Shown piece after piece: positions 1 through 38,342 of a DNA stretch of 64,000 nucleotides; position 1 is the stretch's first letter; the number at the start of each line of letters is the position of its first letter. A program made the position numbers and the translations under genes. The notes under the pieces were generated by a model. That model saw only the letters and a program-made list of their open reading frames with translations. It made no database searches and was not told the origin of the DNA. The DNA is from Cyanobacteriota bacterium (GTDB taxonomy: Bacteria; Cyanobacteriota; Cyanobacteriia; Thermostichales; Thermostichaceae), in assembly GCA_033764955.1 (NCBI GenBank), contig JANRIL010000024.1:32001-96000 (forward strand), written 5' to 3'.

Positions 1-1501
1 GATCTCCCTCATGGGCAGTGCTGACGAAATCAGGATAGGCAATATTGCCATGTTCGCCAATATCGAGTCCGGCGATTTCTTCTTCCACCGAAACTCTTAG
101 CCCAATCGTAGACTTGATGATCTGAAAAAGAACGAAACATGTGACAAACGACCAGAGGGCAATCGCCCCCGCCCCCAAGATCTGTACCCCCAGATTGCCC
201 CAACCCACACCAGACTCGCTATGGGCAAAGATAGGAATGCCCGCCGCTATCACTCCCCAGGCTCCACAAACCCCATGCACCGAGATCGCCCCCACGGGAT
301 CATCAATCTTGAGGTTGGCTTCGATAAACAGCACTGCGAATACAACCAAAATTCCCGCAATCGAGCCAATCAAAATAGCACCCAAAGGATGCACCGTGTA
401 GCAACCAGCCGTAATCCCCACCAGTCCTGCCAGGGCACCGTTGCCCACAAATGTCATATCCGGTTTGGTAAAAACAGCCCAGGAGGTGAACAGTGCCCCA
501 ATCGCCCCCGCCGCCCCCGCTAGGTAGGTATTAAAGGCAATCCAGCCAATGTCAGGAATAGCTGCCGTTGTGGATCCCGCATTAAAGCCAATCCAACCAA
601 ACCACAAGATAAAAACCCCCAGCATTCCCAATGGCAGGCTATGTCCAGGAATCGCCCTAGGCTGACCATCTGAGCTATATTTACCCGTGCGCGGTCCCAG
701 CGACAAAGCCCCCGCCAAGGCGGCGGCTCCTCCACAGAGATGCACTACCCCGGATCCGGCATAGTCGATATAGCCTAAATTGCCTAACCAACCGGAGGTG
801 CCACCGTTATAAGCCCCAAACAGGCTATTCCAAGCCCAGCCGCCAGAGATGGGGTAAACGATCAAAGAGATAAAAACAGAGTAGATCAGATAAGCAATAA
901 ACTTGGTGCGCTCAGCCATTGCCCCCGAAACGATGGTGGCTGCCGTCGCTGCAAACACCAGTTGAAAACAGAAAAAAGTGAATGGCCAGCCTGGATTGGC
1001 ATCAGGGCTATCCACCACCGTAGAAGTATTGGCACTCGCCCAATTAAAAACAAACCAGTTGATTCCTAAAACCCCAGTCGGGTTAGACCCAAACATCAAA
1101 CCAAACCCCATAAACCAAAAGGCACAGGCTCCAAAACAAAAGTCCATCAAGTTTTTCAGAACAATGTTGGCCGCATTTTTGGCGCGGGTAAAGCCACACT
1201 CCACCATGGCAAAGCCCGCCTGCATGAAAAAGACGAGGGTTCCCCCCACCGTTGTCCAAACAATGTCAGCGTGGTATTGGCTAGTCGCTAAGCTCTTTTT
1301 TAATTCTGCCAAAGCCGCTGGAGAGAGGGTTTTCGCCAGCTCAGGTAGGGTTTCTTCGTCTTGGGCAAAACCAGGCCAATGGCTCAAAATCAACCAAAAC
1401 CCTAGCATCATCAAACTGATTTTTAACCAACGGGGCAGTTTCCTGATGGGATCCAGCCACAGTTGGCGGAATGGTGCTGTCTGAGTGAGGAAGCGATCCA
1501 T
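1..1501 (-). CDS. amt: Ammonium transporter (Amt family); stop codon lies just outside the window
   Basis: Not in the ORF track. Manual translation from ATG at 1501 gives MDRFLTQ...VFFMQAGFAMVECGFTRAKNAANI...DYAGSGVVH...IGEHGNIAYPDFVSTAHEGD. Confidence 0.95.
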   Translation of the reverse strand, partial: MDRFLTQTAPFRQLWLDPIRKLPRWLKISLMMLGFWLILSHWPGFAQDEETLPELAKTLSPAALAELKKSLATSQYHADIVWTTVGGTLVFFMQAGFAMVECGFTRAKNAANIVLKNLMDFCFGACAFWFMGFGLMFGSNPTGVLGINWFVFNWASANTSTVVDSPDANPGWPFTFFCFQLVFAATAATIVSGAMAERTKFIAYLIYSVFISLIVYPISGGWAWNSLFGAYNGGTSGWLGNLGYIDYAGSGVVHLCGGAAALAGALSLGPRTGKYSSDGQPRAIPGHSLPLGMLGVFILWFGWIGFNAGSTTAAIPDIGWIAFNTYLAGAAGAIGALFTSWAVFTKPDMTFVGNGALAGLVGITAGCYTVHPLGAILIGSIAGILVVFAVLFIEANLKIDDPVGAISVHGVCGAWGVIAAGIPIFAHSESGVGWGNLGVQILGAGAIALWSFVTCFVLFQIIKSTIGLRVSVEEEIAGLDIGEHGNIAYPDFVSTAHEGD

Positions 1502-31802: not shown

Positions 31803-32055
31803 GTTGGCAACGCTAGAGCCAGGATCCTCCCCTCAAGGCACAGCCTGAGAACCCGCCATCCCTCAGGTTGGGGGAGAAAGTCGAGGGGCTAAGTTTATCC
31901 GAAACTCGCCGCTACTCTGGGATCCCGTCAACAGAAAAATTTCACCGATGGCGAGTGGTGAAGAGGGATCCACAACGGGGGATGATAAAGAAGTCTCAGC
32001 AAGCCATATCTTTGCTCGACATTCTTTACGTTTGTGCAGATGGGAGAGTTTAGCG

Positions 32056-32508
32056 ATGTCAAATCCGGTCAATAGTGCAGAACAATTGCTCAAAGCTTAC
32101 GCTTCGGGTCAACGGGAATTTGCCAAATCTAACCTGAGTGGAGCCAGTCTGAGTGGTGTCGATCTGAGCGGTATTGATCTGAGTGGCGCTAATTTGCAGG
32201 GGGTGGATTTGCGGGAGAGCAATCTCAGTCGGGCTAACCTGGCTCATGCTGATCTGCGGGGAGCTAGACTACGCCGTACTAACCTGATTGGAGCCAACCT
32301 CAAGGAAGCCGACTTTCGGGGAGCGAATATGTATCGCGCCAAGCTCAACAAAGCCAACCTGAGCGGAGCCGATCTCAACAAAGCCGATCTGAGAATTGGT
32401 GCTGATCTGCGGGAGGCTGAGATTGCTGGCACCAACTTCAAAGGGGCATTTTACGATGAATACACCAAGTTTCCCGATGGCTTCAGCCCCCCCGAAGCAG
32501 GTATGTAA
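32056..32508 (+). CDS. Pentapeptide repeat protein
   Basis: Tandem A(D/N)Lxx repeats; C-terminal YDEYTKFPDGF. Confidence 0.9.
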   Translation: MSNPVNSAEQLLKAYASGQREFAKSNLSGASLSGVDLSGIDLSGANLQGVDLRESNLSRANLAHADLRGARLRRTNLIGANLKEADFRGANMYRAKLNKANLSGADLNKADLRIGADLREAEIAGTNFKGAFYDEYTKFPDGFSPPEAGM

Positions 32509-32533
32509 AACCTTGCCCTCACCCAAAATTCCT

Positions 32534-32625
32534 GCTTGTTCAGGAATTATCCATGACACGCCAGGGATCGGGATCCCCCTAAATTCCCCTTAAAAAGGGA
32601 GGCTTTGCATCCTTTCCCCCTTTGA
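32534..32625 (+). repeat. Dispersed ~95-bp repeat, inverted copy at ~42688-42784
   Basis: gcttgttca-N-aattatc-N-atgacacgc-N-agggatcgggatccccc...ccccttaaaaag...ctttgcatcc is shared by both loci. Confidence 0.8.
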
Positions 32626-32676
32626 TAAGGGGGTTAGAGGGGCGCTCCCTTTTGCTTTGCTAAAGATCAACACCAC

Positions 32677-33657
32677 CTAGTCCAAATGCAATTGGGCAAT
32701 TGTTTGTTGCAAAATTTCCCCAGAACGAGAGAGTTGCTGTTGCTCGGAAGGGGTGAGAGAAAGGGACAACACGCGGGACACGCCCTGCCGATCCACAATC
32801 GCAGGTAAGCTGAGGCAGACTTCTTTCATGCCATACTGACCCGTGAGTAGGCTGCTGATGGTCAAGACCCGCCGTTGATTGTGTAGCACAGCCTCGACGA
32901 TTTGGGTTACCCCCAGACCAATCGCATAACTGGTGGCTCCTTTGCGCTTGATGATCTCATAGGCGGCGTTTCTCACCTGCTCATAGATCTGGTCAATTTC
33001 CTGCTGACGAACGGGATCCTGCCATTCGGGGAACAAATCGGTGATGGAGGTTCCGACTACGTTGACCTTGCTCCAGACCGCCACCTCACTGTCGCCATGC
33101 TCGCCGATAATGTAGGCATGGAGACTACGCGGATCCACCTGAATTTTTTCGGCCAGCAGATAGCGAAAACGAGCGGTATCCAAGACAGTGCCGGATCCCA
33201 TGACCTGACTGGCTGGAAACCCCGATAGCTTGAGGGAGACATAAGTCATGATGTCAACGGGATTGCTGACGATGAGCAGAATGGCATCAGCACAGTGCTC
33301 TACCACCTGCGGAATCAAGCTCTTGAAAATTTCGGCGTTCCGCTGCACCAGATCAAGGCGGGTTTCACCCGGGCGCTGTTTAGCTCCGGCGGTGATGATG
33401 ACGATATCGCAGCCTTGACAGTCAGCTAGAGATCCAGCGCTGATGCGGGTGGGTTGAATAAAAGGGATCCCATGCACCAGATCCATGACTTCGCCCTCCG
33501 CTTTATCCCGATTTTGGTCACAGATCACCAGTTCATCGAGGGTATTTTGGATCAACATGGCATAAGCACAAGCCATGCCCACTTGTCCGGCACCAATGAT
33601 CGCTCCTTTGTGCAGGCGACGATCCACAACCGCAGGGCTAGACCGCAAATTTTCCAT
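32677..33657 (-). CDS. ldh: L-lactate dehydrogenase
   Basis: [43 protein letters not shown]. Confidence 0.93.
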
Positions 33658-33819
33658 AACAGACCCCCAAGGCAATTCCACTAGTCTAGACAGAAAAAAC
33701 ATATCATTCCTTCGCAGGAACGTTTTTTATTCTGTTAGAAATATGGTGGGTTTGGGCACTGAAACTGTCCTCAATTAGGGTTCAGTTGTGTTTCTAGTTC
33801 AGAGCTTAACCTCATCGTC

Positions 33820-34050
33820 GTCACGAACCCGACGCTGCCCTAAGCCCTTCGGTCAGGCTACGCCAACGGGAGAGCGCGGGCTTGTAAACAGCCAGGTTTA
33901 CAACGCAAGTCGTGACTAGACCATAAGCCAGCTAGATTGCACGGACTTCCGAGCGTTTTCCTAACTCGGATTGCCTCTAAACCCTCTGGCTGAGGGTGCT
34001 TGCAGAAAGGACATTAATCTATTTGGTGGTCGAAGGAACAAGTTGTTTTT
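33820..34050 (+). ncRNA. omegaRNA scaffold (guide predicted immediately 5', in the flank)
   Basis: 5' GTCACGA pairs with TCGTGAC (33910-33916), followed by TAGACC; stems tccgag/ctcgga and accctc/gagggt; GGTCGAAGG before the ORF. Confidence 0.75.
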
Positions 34051-34062
34051 GGATTATCTCCA

Positions 34063-35154
34063 ATGAACCCCAGCAGTCGCATTCCAGTATTAGCTCCAGA
34101 CGATACGCCACTGATGCCAACCTTGTACCGCAGGGCGCAAGCATGGGTAGATTCTGGCAAAGCCGAATGGGTCAGCAATGACCTCAACATTAAAGCTGTG
34201 CGTTTATATCAAGAGCCGTTTAGCCGCAACACTCAACCCATCGTGGTTGGCATCGACCCAGGTAAAAAGTTTTCAGGCATTGCCGTCCAATCCAGTCTCT
34301 TCACCTTGTTCAGCGCTCATCTGATTCTGCCCTTCCCGTCCGTCACTAAAAAGATGACGGGCAGGCGTATTCTCAGACGAGCGAGAAGGGGCAGACGCAT
34401 CAACCGCAAAGTGGCTTTCCATCTACGTGCTCACAGACAAAAACGGTTTGATAATCGCAGGCAAAAGAAGTTGGTGCCGTCAATTCGTGCCAATCGTGAA
34501 CTTGAGTTGCGACTGGTCAAAGAATTGTTGCGTCTATTTCCCGTCAGCACCATTGTTTACGAATACATTGAAGCCAGAGGAGATAAAGCTTTCAGCCCGG
34601 TGATGGTAGGGCAAAAAGTCATGCTGGAGCGACTACGCCAACTGGCTCCCACAACCACACAATTCGGCTGGGAAACGGCTAAACTCCGCACTCATCTAAA
34701 TCTGGTCAAACAAAAGGCTGATAAGTCCGCACAGACCCCCCAAACTCATGCGGTAGATGGTATTGCTCTTGCTGCGAGTCAGTTTGTGCAATACAAAGCC
34801 TTTTACACCACTCAGACACATGGGCATGACTGGGCGGGAACCGTGCGGCCAACGGCCTCTCCCTTTCGTGTGATTGCCCGTCCTAACCTGTTTCGCCGTC
34901 AACTCCACTTCGAGAACTTTGGCAAGGGTGGAATTAGAAAACGCAAGGGTGGCACTGTCACGCCATTCGGCTTCCGCTCTGGTGATTTTGTCGAAGCTGA
35001 AAAGGCTGGCAGAGTCTATCGCGGCTGGATTGGCGGCTTTAGTGAAGCCAGTAAAGTCGTTTCGGTGTATGACCACAACTGGCATCGACTAGGGCAATTC
35101 AAAGCGAACAAAGTCAACCTCATCAAGCGGAGTACAAAACTGTGTGTAGCGTAA
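34063..35154 (+). CDS. isrB: IsrB RNA-guided nickase (RRXRR family)
   Basis: PLMP, RuvC-I GIDPG, Arg-rich bridge helix RRARRGRR, RuvC-II VYE, RuvC-III HAVDG; no HNH/CxxC; 363 aa. Confidence 0.85.
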   Translation: MNPSSRIPVLAPDDTPLMPTLYRRAQAWVDSGKAEWVSNDLNIKAVRLYQEPFSRNTQPIVVGIDPGKKFSGIAVQSSLFTLFSAHLILPFPSVTKKMTGRRILRRARRGRRINRKVAFHLRAHRQKRFDNRRQKKLVPSIRANRELELRLVKELLRLFPVSTIVYEYIEARGDKAFSPVMVGQKVMLERLRQLAPTTTQFGWETAKLRTHLNLVKQKADKSAQTPQTHAVDGIALAASQFVQYKAFYTTQTHGHDWAGTVRPTASPFRVIARPNLFRRQLHFENFGKGGIRKRKGGTVTPFGFRSGDFVEAEKAGRVYRGWIGGFSEASKVVSVYDHNWHRLGQFKANKVNLIKRSTKLCVA

Positions 35155-35523
35155 ACCCATTGTCCGGCTCCGTCCCTGCGCCGGACTCGCATTCCTCCCG
35201 ACGCTCCCCTAAGCCCTTCAGGCAGGCTACGCCAACAGGAGCGCGCGGGACTCCTGCTGTTTTAGTTGAAGAAAACTAAGCAGAGAATTAGGAAGCAAAA
35301 GCCACTAGCTCCCATCCCATAGCAGCAAACCTTAATCAGGGTAGAGGCAGAAATTCGCGGCAAGAGACGGATTGGAAGGGATGCTATAGCGTGGATGGGC
35401 ATATTTTGCTTGTCAAGGATGGGGATGCCTCGTCGATAGGATTTACCGACGAGGCATCCCAGTTGATGGGTAGGGGGATCCCGGCATTTCACCCATAAAA
35501 TTTGCCCATAAAAATGGCATGAC

Positions 35524-36030
35524 TCAAAGCTCGGTCATGCCAATCACATATTTTGACCATTCGCGGTGGGTGCCACTCCTGACCACCTTAGAAATCTCAA
35601 AGTAGAGGCTGCTGTGGGGGCGGCGAGGGGGACGCAAGAGGGGCATGTCGGCTTCGCGGGGGGTACGGCTGCCCTTCTTGACATTGCAGCGGACACAGGC
35701 ACTCACGACGTTATCCCAACTATCTCCCCCCCCACGGGAACGGGGAATCACATGATCAATCGTCAGGTCTTCGCCGGAACAGCCGCAATACTGGCAACTA
35801 TGACCATCCCGATACATGACATTGCGCCGCGTCAGGGGAATTTCTTTGTAGGGGACACTCACGTAATGGCGCAACCGAATCACCGTGGGCAAAGGAACAT
35901 CCCCATACACTCGCCGCCCATTATGCTCCACCTGCTCTGCCTTTCCTTTAAGCAAGAGGACAACGGCTCTCCGCCAACTGGTGATGTTGAGCGGTTCATA
36001 GGATGCGTTGAGAACCAGAACTTTACTCAT
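35524..36030 (-). CDS. HNH endonuclease (McrA-like)
   Basis: VLVLNASYEPL, RDGHSCQYCG, TIDHVIPRSRGG, CVRCNVKK. Confidence 0.92.
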   Translation of the reverse strand: MSKVLVLNASYEPLNITSWRRAVVLLLKGKAEQVEHNGRRVYGDVPLPTVIRLRHYVSVPYKEIPLTRRNVMYRDGHSCQYCGCSGEDLTIDHVIPRSRGGGDSWDNVVSACVRCNVKKGSRTPREADMPLLRPPRRPHSSLYFEISKVVRSGTHREWSKYVIGMTEL

Positions 36031-36299
36031 CAGTAGGCTAAAAAAGTTAGGGGGAGTGCCATCCTCACAGGTAAAGAGGAATTAAGCAAAATGCTAACAG
36101 GCGGGTTTTGCTCCTGCCTAGTCTCTATCATGCCCTGTCTTCCCCCCTCTGGGTTAGTTTTCGGATGGTGGGGGTCGTTGGGTTGTGATGGGTCTGGGGT
36201 TCTGTCTATCTGAAAATAACGACGAAATATGATCAGGGATCCGCCAAGACGGCGCAGGGAATTTATCCCTGAGAGTTTCAAATGACTGGATCTGCGTAT

Positions 36300-38342
36300 T
36301 TACCTGGCTTGGGATCCCTTTTCCTCTCCTCTTAGCCCACCACTTTTCAGTCCAGCCACTGGCAAGACAAAGTGAAAGGCGCTCCCCTGCTGCTCGCCCG
36401 CCGACTCCGCCCAGATCTGCCCGCCCATCGCCTCGATAATCAGACGGCAAATCGCCAAGCCTAAACCTGTTCCTCCCACCGAGCGGCGGAGGGATCCCTC
36501 CGCTTGATAAAACCGATCAAAGATGGCTTCCAGGCGATCCTGAGCGATGCCCCGTCCGGTGTCAGCAATTGTGAAACGAACGGTGGGGATCCCTGGGATC
36601 CGCTCCATCTGCCCTGCGGATGGCTGGCTCACCCGCACCCAAATCTGCCCCTCGGCGGGCGTAAATTTGCAGGCATTATCCAACAACTTACGCAGCACCT
36701 CCACCAACCATTCCCCATCCGCACTCACCCAGGGCAGTCCTTCCGGCAACTCCAGATCAATGCTGGGCAACACCTGCTGGCGACGGCGGGCATTCAGGTT
36801 GCTGACCGCCAGTTCCACACATTCTTCCGGCGACACCGCCTCAATATGCCACTGAATTCGACCACTTTCCAGCTTCGAGAGAGTAAGAAAATCTTGCACC
36901 AATTGGCGAAGCCGTCCCGCATCCTGCAAGGCCGTGTCCAACATTTCCTGGCGCACCGCCAACGGCATGTCGGGATCCGCCGCTAGGGACTCCAGGCAAA
37001 CCTGGATAGTGGAGAGAGGGGTCCGTAATTCGTGACCGGTCACAGCAATCAGATCACTTTTCGCTTGATCGAGGGCGGCCAATTGATGATTGAGTTCATC
37101 CAAATGTTGATAAGCTTCCGCCTGGATGAGCGCCACCCCCACCTGAAAAGCAATCCCCTCCGCCAACTCCACCACCGAGGGATCCCAGGGCTGGGGTTGC
37201 GCTTGGTGCAGCTCCAACAGACCCAACAAGCGATCTTGGTAGAGCATGGGTACGGCTAACCAAGCCCCAATCCCCCAGGTTTGCCAAGCAACGGTAGCTA
37301 AACGAGGATCCCGGCTGCTATCCGTCGCCAGCACAAATTCCCCAGCGGTCATGGCCTCCTGTAAAAAGGGATTTCCAGCCAGTAGCCAGTCTTGGGTCTG
37401 TAGACTGGCCGTGTCCGGTTGGCAATATTCATGCTTCACCTGCACATAGGCTTGATCCCTCTGGCAGCGATAGATCAGACAACGAGCAACAGCCGTGGCT
37501 TGCCCCAGTTCCTGCACCGCAATGTGCAGAATTTGGCTGGGATCCAAAGAGCGGCGGATAGCGGTGCTAATTCGATTCACCAAGCGTTCTTTGCGCTCTT
37601 GCAGTTGGATCGCTTTGTAGGTGCGCTGCAATTTGTATTGTCCCGCCTGCAAGTAGGTAATCAACCGTTCTGCGAAGGGGGCAGGGTTGAGATGGTAGCC
37701 ATTACGGGTTACAGAATCCTCCCATCGGTTTCGCAGACCATCCAGCAGCGGGTACAAATCCGGTCGGTAGGCCAAAATTTTGGGGATAAGATGGAGGGCT
37801 GCTTGATAAGCCACGGGGGGATCAAAAGACCAGATGCCCTCAAACTGGCGAGCCATATCGGGATCCCGACCATTGCTGCTGCTGGGGGCGCGCAGGAGTC
37901 GCTCTCGGCAAACTAGGCAGGTGGCGTAGGCGGGATCCAACACAATCAGATGCCATTCTTGGGTGAGGGGATCCGCCTCATCTAAAGCAACTGTTTGGTA
38001 GGGAGTAGGGGTTTGGGAAAAATCCGTTTCTGGCATGGCCAGCACATACACCTGCTCAGCTATTTGGCTAATCCGTTGATAACGACGGGCTTCTTGTCGG
38101 TAATAGCGCTCCTTTTGAAAATTGGCAAACACCACCGGATGGCTTTGCCCCGAAAGCACTTGATCCTCCATGGCATGACTAAGGGCAACCAAAGAAGATT
38201 TGAAGTAAAGCTGGGGGTGGAGTTGGGGGAGAGCCGCCAATAGATCCGCCAGTAGAGAAGTGCGTTGGGGGTGGGCAAGGGGGGGCGGGGGTATCGGCAT
38301 ACAAGGCTCAGGCAGCACTTTTGGGATCCGCGACGGTAGCAA
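36300..38342 (-). CDS. DICT-GAF sensor histidine kinase
   Basis: YFKSSLVALSHAMED and QEWHLIV (DICT), GAF, GHELRTPL, NACKF, GGTGLGL. Confidence 0.88.
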   Translation of the reverse strand: MLPSRIPKVLPEPCMPIPPPPLAHPQRTSLLADLLAALPQLHPQLYFKSSLVALSHAMEDQVLSGQSHPVVFANFQKERYYRQEARRYQRISQIAEQVYVLAMPETDFSQTPTPYQTVALDEADPLTQEWHLIVLDPAYATCLVCRERLLRAPSSSNGRDPDMARQFEGIWSFDPPVAYQAALHLIPKILAYRPDLYPLLDGLRNRWEDSVTRNGYHLNPAPFAERLITYLQAGQYKLQRTYKAIQLQERKERLVNRISTAIRRSLDPSQILHIAVQELGQATAVARCLIYRCQRDQAYVQVKHEYCQPDTASLQTQDWLLAGNPFLQEAMTAGEFVLATDSSRDPRLATVAWQTWGIGAWLAVPMLYQDRLLGLLELHQAQPQPWDPSVVELAEGIAFQVGVALIQAEAYQHLDELNHQLAALDQAKSDLIAVTGHELRTPLSTIQVCLESLAADPDMPLAVRQEMLDTALQDAGRLRQLVQDFLTLSKLESGRIQWHIEAVSPEECVELAVSNLNARRRQQVLPSIDLELPEGLPWVSADGEWLVEVLRKLLDNACKFTPAEGQIWVRVSQPSAGQMERIPGIPTVRFTIADTGRGIAQDRLEAIFDRFYQAEGSLRRSVGGTGLGLAICRLIIEAMGGQIWAESAGEQQGSAFHFVLPVAGLKSGGLRGEEKGSQAR

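Follow-up and report, generated by a model that had tools for sequence, protein, structure and literature searches.

The window, by which we mean the whole 64,000-nucleotide (nt) stretch of contig JANRIL010000024.1 that was analyzed here, carries at 33820-35265 an IS200/IS605-type element of 1446 bp. An earlier sequence-only reading of this locus had taken it for an apparently intact RNA-guided nickase system, consisting of IsrB and its omegaRNA. Our analysis leads to the same class: very probably, this is a non-autonomous IS200/IS605-family (ISC1/IsrB-type OMEGA) element with an isrB nickase gene and an omegaRNA. Its parts and the flank DNA that belongs to the system are listed below; DtIsrB is the structurally solved IsrB of Desulfovirgula thermocuniculi (PDB 8DMB; Hirano et al. 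2022, PMC9581776).

33800-33819, plus strand: predicted guide segment of the omegaRNA, in flank DNA outside the element; its 20-nt length is by analogy with DtIsrB
33820-34062, plus strand: omegaRNA scaffold, 243 nt, on the right-end (RE) side of the transposon in IS200/IS605 naming
33828-33880, plus strand: end hairpin copy 1, which is stem-loop 1 (SL1) of the omegaRNA; presumed TnpA-recognized subterminal hairpin
34063-35154, plus strand: intact isrB gene, 363 amino acids (aa), with PLMP, RuvC I, Arg-rich bridge helix, RuvC II and III, and a domain interacting with the target-adjacent motif (TAM); HNH-less
35162-35186, plus strand: post-stop hairpin GTCCGGC ... GCCGGAC, kept in relatives with altered stem letters (alignment)
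35197-35249, plus strand: end hairpin copy 2 at the TAM-side end (left end, LE, in IS200/IS605 naming), a direct repeat of copy 1
35250-35265, plus strand: last 16 nt of the element, between hairpin and TAM; boundary placed as in the empty sites of the related element L017 (analogy)
35266-35270, plus strand: TTGAA TAM (TTGA = NTGA), flank DNA abutting the element

Among all solved structures, the best match to the isrB translation is DtIsrB, with an E-value of 1.8e-48 and residues 5-359 aligned; the best match thus lies within IsrB, as the sequence-only reading had supposed. Solved IscB chains match at E 1e-8 or weaker and in the N-terminal part only, with the main aligned stretch at query residues 8-162 and, for the HfmIscB chain, an additional weak second stretch at 179-220. 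The sole Pfam family on the open reading frame (ORF) is RRXRR (PF14239, E 2e-40, residues 7-170). The motifs previously read from the letters (PLMP, GIDPG, VYE, HAVDG, and an Arg-rich bridge helix) were all located in the 363-aa frame at 34063-35154: PLMP occupies residues 16-19, the RuvC motifs are GIDPG at 63-67 (Asp65), VYEYI at 165-169 (Glu167), and THAVDG at 228-233 (His229 and Asp232), and the Arg-rich stretch RRILRRARRGRRINRK is present. Residue conservation was assessed in 81 aligned sequences, namely the window's protein and 80 homologue matches from public cyanobacterial genomes. Glu167 and His229 are kept in all 81, Asp65 in 80, and Asp232 in 79, and in the structure-match alignment these four residues line up with the catalytic residues of DtIsrB; Met18 and Pro19 of the PLMP motif are kept in 79/81 and 78/81. 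In the TAM-interacting domain, Arg342 and Gln345, each kept in 80/81, align with R323 and Q326 of DtIsrB, which read G3 and A4 of the TTGA TAM (PMC9581776).

The absence of an HNH domain, also claimed earlier, is borne out. Pfam gave no HNH match on the isrB ORF, where it found RRXRR only, though a neighboring ORF matched HNH in the same scan. A mere 62 residues separate Glu167 from His229, and the 81 aligned sequences span 265-390 aa, truncated matches included, which is too short for an HNH insertion. IscB, in which HNH lies within RuvC, was tried as an identity and rejected, given the lack of a Pfam HNH match and the partial match to solved IscB chains. The frame is free of stops, frameshifts, and catalytic substitutions. 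The ratio of nonsynonymous to synonymous substitutions (dN/dS), computed against the five homologues of highest similarity (77-85% protein identity), is 0.06-0.09, an approximate value since dS is saturated (> 1.5), and this low ratio reflects purifying selection on the whole lineage, not on the window's copy. The closest relatives in the genome collection, with proteins 77-85% identical, come from filamentous and Thermosynechococcaceae-labelled metagenome-assembled genomes; the species-representative collection holds at least 171 confirmed related stretches. The full-length match to DtIsrB, together with the conserved catalytic and TAM-reading residues, supports the assignment of the predicted protein as IsrB.

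Directly 5' of the gene, the structured leader of about 240 nt noted from the letters proved to be a conserved stretch of 243 nt (33820-34062) with covariation. We aligned 33800-34075 with the matching stretch of 11 related loci (12 sequences); a MAFFT alignment covering 76 upstream regions had too many gaps to be read, and the 12-sequence alignment and an nhmmer profile were used instead. Of the 52 pairs that RNAalifold predicted, 29 show compensatory changes. The scaffold model comprises the following parts.

33820-33826 with 33910-33916, plus strand: stem S1 (alignment, added by eye)
33828-33880, plus strand: SL1 (alignment)
33882-33903, plus strand: SL2 (alignment)
33948-33970, plus strand: SL4 (alignment)
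about 33982-33997, plus strand: SL5 (alignment)
33890-33894 with 33987-33991, plus strand: pseudoknot 1, SL2 loop with SL5 loop (pairing proposed by eye from the alignment)
33958-33962 with 34034-34038, plus strand: pseudoknot 2, SL4 loop with a downstream segment (loop pairing read from the alignment)
34049-34063, plus strand: terminal hairpin, reaching the isrB start codon

In the full model with S1 and both pseudoknots, 92.1% of cells pair, compared with 36-52% when the partners are slid by 1-3 columns, and changes on both sides are seen in 34 of 65 pairs, compared with 6-10 in the slid controls; the observed values were reached by 0 of 500 shuffles. All 5 proposed pairs of the SL2-SL5 pseudoknot form, with 95% of cells paired and 3/5 pairs covarying; an adaptor pseudoknot between these loops has been described for DtIsrB and two tested cyanobacterial IsrB RNAs (PMC9581776). 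The window copy keeps every scaffold helix, some by compensatory changes of its own, such as the C-G at S1 pair 25/114. With the nhmmer scaffold profile, the same RNA was found directly upstream of 76 of 80 related cyanobacterial IsrB loci, 11 of the matched loci having been used to build the profile.

Two relatives display other arrangements of the scaffold. At L016, about 650 nt upstream of the IsrB element and on the other strand, there is a second omegaRNA-like scaffold match (444-631, minus strand, E 1.1e-24), perhaps an omegaRNA that stands alone or what is left of a different element. At L086, the IsrB locus is split (177-381 and 1501-2412), with the scaffold about 1.1 kb upstream of the remainder of the gene, which resumes at codon 60.

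Scaffold conservation begins exactly at 33820 (GTCA.GAACCC), and the preceding 20 columns are unrelated in all 12 loci. The guide/scaffold boundary that had been placed at 33819|33820 is therefore the very point at which similarity to the 11 related loci starts. The scaffold start, GTCACGAACCCG, resembles the published start of the DtIsrB scaffold, and in DtIsrB a 20-nt guide lies directly 5' of a scaffold that starts gucaac.. (PMC9581776). By this analogy, a guide of about 20 nt is predicted at 33800-33819. Elsewhere in its own genome, the nearest match to this guide has 4 mismatches, and none was found with a TGA-type TAM.

The two ends of the element resemble each other, as the sequence-only reading had remarked of the end hairpins: a 53-nt direct repeat relates 33828-33880 to 35197-35249 with 91% identity, and within related elements, too, the hairpins of both ends are alike. 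SL1 of DtIsrB is dispensable for nicking and has been linked to transposon mobility (PMC9581776), which fits a dual role as TnpA-recognized hairpin. On the 3' side, similarity to seven relatives runs through the TAM-side hairpin, a spacer of 14-22 nt, and an invariant TTGAA (35266-35270), where it stops. TTGAA is invariant in 8/8 aligned elements (the window's and the seven relatives), and the TTGA at 35266-35269 that had been called as the TAM is thus part of the last conserved block at that end. A profile of this end, the right one as the window is written, matched 33 of 79 downstream regions. All 26 right ends aligned to the last positions carry TTGA (18) or ATGA (8), and those among the right ends that were not in the profile (n = 18) carry TTGA (10) or ATGA (8). 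In L031, an insertion of about 130 nt interrupts the TAM-side hairpin downstream of 2589, after which the 3' arm, the spacer, and TTGAA resume.

The closest usable relative for a test of the junction is L017, which has the same RNA and a protein 82% identical. In one genus relative the L017 element occupies the same site (96% identity), and seven of the eight other species of the genus have an empty site with the sequence ...GGCTATTGGCG|TTGAAGATGCGG. At this junction the L017 left flank, complete to the last base ahead of GTCAAG, is followed by a single TTGAA and the right flank. Elements of this family hence start at the first scaffold base and end just before TTGAA, with no target duplication and with the guide-match and the TAM left in the empty site. 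In the eighth species (L112, G054:C43:9800-10600), the empty site of L017 has 13 extra letters that include a second TTGAA; this variant may be a footprint or an independent change. For the L015 element, a clean empty junction was seen in none of three genus relatives, in which extra flank DNA is missing on both sides. By homology with L017, the empty site of the window copy would read ...CATCGTC|TTGAAG. The form of the junction proposed by the sequence-only reading, left flank joined to TTGAA, is therefore what seven of eight sister species of L017 display, whereas an empty allele of the window's own copy was not found.

The boundaries suggest how the element would work, each step being carried over from the established mechanism of the family. 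A transcript from the left flank would run into the omegaRNA and provide its 5' end of about 20 nt (33800-33819) as guide. IsrB bound to this RNA would recognize the same 20 nt followed by NTGA, so its target would be the scarless donor joint ...CATCGTC|TTGAAG left by TnpA excision. A nick in the non-target strand at this joint would favor the recombinational reinstatement of the element.

Several results weigh against reading the window copy as such a system. An Infernal-type check with Rfam covariance models, suggested with the original claim, came back empty: a scan of 32000-37000 at E up to 1 gave no match, and HEARO (RF02033), the IscB omegaRNA, was thereby rejected as a candidate. The single-sequence fold of 33800-34075 (z -0.54) is no stabler than shuffles, so support for the RNA comes from covariation only. 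There is some circularity in the TAM count at the right ends, because only TTGAA-like ends let a local alignment extend that far. An empty allele of the window's own site was found in none of 40 relatives, in which the ldh and HNH flanks are widely separated or placed on separate contigs; for this reason the window's junction is given by homology. These flanks are an ldh-type gene upstream (32677-33702, minus strand, with Pfam Ldh_1_N and Ldh_1_C matches) and a 168-aa stand-alone HNH endonuclease gene downstream (35524-36030, minus strand, Pfam HNH, E 3.7e-16). The ldh gene is on the opposite strand to the element, i.e., divergent, and a scan of 33550-35550 for sigma-70-like promoters, which covers the sigma-70 consensus only, found no site. 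IscB-type elements depend on transcription from outside and favor a co-oriented upstream gene (Meers et al., bioRxiv 10.1101/2023.03.14.532601). Finally, Y1 TnpA (PF01797) has no match in the 3.8-Mb, 48-contig, 89%-complete assembly.

Two exact-pattern scans of metagenome contigs, one with letters of the left flank and one with letters of ldh, gave no matches. One DNA sequencing run, covering 5% of sampled words, yielded six short contig pieces with no joints and none over the left flank; three 151-nt pieces from the same run cover the scaffold and the 5' part of the gene with 4-7 differences each, and are fragments of a related element only.

The element is present as a single copy in its genome, both by DNA and by RRXRR family search, and the window copy shows no sign of recent movement. 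The statement that it lacks a TnpA was upheld beside the element, where none of the neighboring ORFs is one, as well as across the assembly. Transposase genes often remain unassembled, and Y1 TnpA is present in 5/5 genomes that hold the closest relatives. In its own genome we observed ten TnpB-type (PF07282) matches, e.g., at C45:123257-123460 and C5:149013-149216, several of them in open frames of 390-420 aa. As two of these matches are found right where a contig begins, the assembly may underrepresent transposon genes. As a single copy for which no TnpA was found, the element is probably stranded at present, competent by its sequence and with no target to act on. With no TnpA, no other close guide match, no co-oriented upstream gene, and no sigma-70-like promoter found, we regard this copy as currently idle, with nothing broken in its sequence.

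The same facts would also suit a silent, stranded relic that makes no guide-bearing omegaRNA at this site, has no transposase, is inactive, and will decay. The single copy, the absence of TnpA from the assembly as opposed to its presence in all five closest-relative genomes, the divergent upstream gene with no promoter-like site in the scan, and the guide with no target elsewhere in the genome all point that way. We nevertheless consider a relic improbable: the ORF is unbroken by stops or frameshifts and keeps its catalytic residues, the scaffold retains every helix, some via compensatory changes of the copy itself, the promoter scan was confined to the sigma-70 consensus, and the assembly is only 89% complete.

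Domesticated TnpB-derived regulators offer an analogy for another explanation, namely that the IsrB-omegaRNA has been retained for a host function such as regulation or defense and not for upkeep of the transposon. Retention by the host would accord with the strong purifying selection acting on the protein lineage and with an intact copy, the only one, in a genome where TnpA was not detected. Set against this, the catalytic residues are intact rather than lost, both end hairpins and the TAM are intact, the guide is unmatched elsewhere in the genome, and the dN/dS describes the whole lineage, not the window's copy. Moreover, the flanking genes are not conserved neighbors in the 40 relatives, and hence there is no conserved host context. 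A host function accordingly appears very improbable to us. That the locus is some other RuvC-fold gene, or an IscB with recent HNH loss, plus a chance upstream structure can practically be dismissed, as the missing Rfam omegaRNA or HEARO match is outweighed by the full-length DtIsrB alignment (E 1.8e-48, where IscB chains match the N-terminal third only), by the 265-390-aa length of the 81 aligned sequences, truncated matches included, and by leader covariation far above the controls.

The window's protein and omegaRNA core belong with one clade, L015-L018 and L031 (77-85% protein identity). The stems of the window copy's two end hairpins read CCCGACGCT...GCGCGGG, whereas its closest IsrB relatives have CCCCCACCTG...GGTGGGGG; the differences fall at corresponding positions, and both hairpins (33828-33880 and 35197-35249) have changed together. 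In stems and flanking letters they resemble the hairpins of a 60%-identical clade (L030, L040, L041, L042), with 15/15 letters of ATTCCTCCCGACGCT common to the window and L042. One tentative and rather unlikely idea is that IsrB elements switch the mobilizing TnpA by co-replacing both end hairpins, here with the longer CCCGACGCT...GCGCGGG type, with the nuclease/guide core kept fixed. If this were true, the window copy would have been stranded when its matching TnpA was lost.

Comparison with known systems places the element most clearly beside DtIsrB (PMC9581776). The likeness extends over PLMP, the RuvC triad with the His, the bridge helix, and the HNH-less layout; over the aligned TAM-interacting Arg and Gln and a TTGA TAM; over the 5'-to-3' order of guide, immediately adjoining omegaRNA scaffold with the start GUCA..CCC, and gene; over the guide adaptor of S1, SL1, and SL2 with the SL2-SL5 pseudoknot; and over a terminal hairpin at the ribosome-binding region, which here reaches the start codon. 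DtIsrB differs in being a distant match from another host phylum, with a scaffold of 262 nt compared with 243 nt in the window. The same study describes CwIsrB of Crocosphaera watsonii and DsIsrB of Dolichospermum sp., cyanobacterial IsrB-omegaRNA systems that were tested in vitro (PMC9581776); likened by description only, they have in common with the window element the cyanobacterial IsrB-omegaRNA, an NTG-type TAM, and an SL2-SL5 type of pseudoknot.

The GstIscB element ISGst5 of Geobacillus stearothermophilus (Meers et al., bioRxiv 10.1101/2023.03.14.532601) is likewise a non-autonomous IS200/IS605 element. Its omegaRNA scaffold derives from a transposon end and its guide lies outside the element, its TAM adjoins the opposite end, and the RNA targets the donor joint. 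Its TAM, TTCAT as written from the left end, equals ATGAA in guide orientation, the variant of 8 related cyanobacterial elements. GstIscB differs in that it has an HNH domain, cuts both strands, and uses an RNA that matches Rfam HEARO, whereas the window RNA has no Rfam match. The Microcystis aeruginosa orf2067 IsrB element jumped into cyanophage Mic1 at ATGA (PMC11237433); there the mobile unit comprises isrB, about 200 bp on its 5' side, and a short 3' tail, an arrangement like ours. That element was caught moving, in contrast to the window copy.

Around the element, the stand-alone HNH gene at 35524-36030 adjoins the HNH-less isrB on the opposite strand, outside the element. It is found in 40/40 related genomes at 69-80% DNA identity, with or without IsrB, so the adjacency of the two looks coincidental. 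An inverted repeat at 35422-35460 (17-nt arms, 5-nt loop, 94% complementary) lies 3' of the stop of the HNH gene with respect to the minus strand and may be the terminator of this gene, although no T-run follows. The post-stop hairpin of isrB at 35162-35186 could act in termination or in RNA stability, or could belong to the transposon end.

The genome has a pronounced repeat signature, with 4915 copies of GGGATCCC (1293 per Mb; about 1 per 773 bp), which in the window occurs, e.g., at 33464 and 35475. The usual cyanobacterial HIP1, GCGATCGC, is rare, with 109 copies (28.7 per Mb). GGGATCCC is reported as a HIP1 derivative of the thermophilic hot-spring Synechococcus OS types A and B in Elhai 2015 (PMC4390886). 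The sequence-only reading had found no GGGATCCC inside the element, and this holds for 33820-35265; about 1.9 copies would be expected there, and the Poisson chance of none is about 0.15, so the absence is only a weak hint. Over 1428 long ORFs, the fraction of the residues I, V, Y, W, R, E, and L (IVYWREL) is 0.401, which gives about 41 °C; this is a crude estimate with a large error, by a formula reportedly from Zeldovich et al. (2007). An organism from warm water is compatible with this value, and a moderately heat-tolerant IsrB is conceivable, as speculation from sequence.

Judged by its sequence, the window element has every defining feature of an IsrB-omegaRNA element. The structure and biochemistry of IsrB are already known, two cyanobacterial systems included, and the window element is a further orthologue. 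It is another example of an OMEGA element that is intact by sequence and whose genome yielded no transposase. Among the known RNA-guided nickases of the Cas9 lineage, IsrB is the smallest, and new orthologues are candidates for compact tools; for the window copy, the calls of guide boundary, scaffold, and TAM are backed by relatives and are directly testable.

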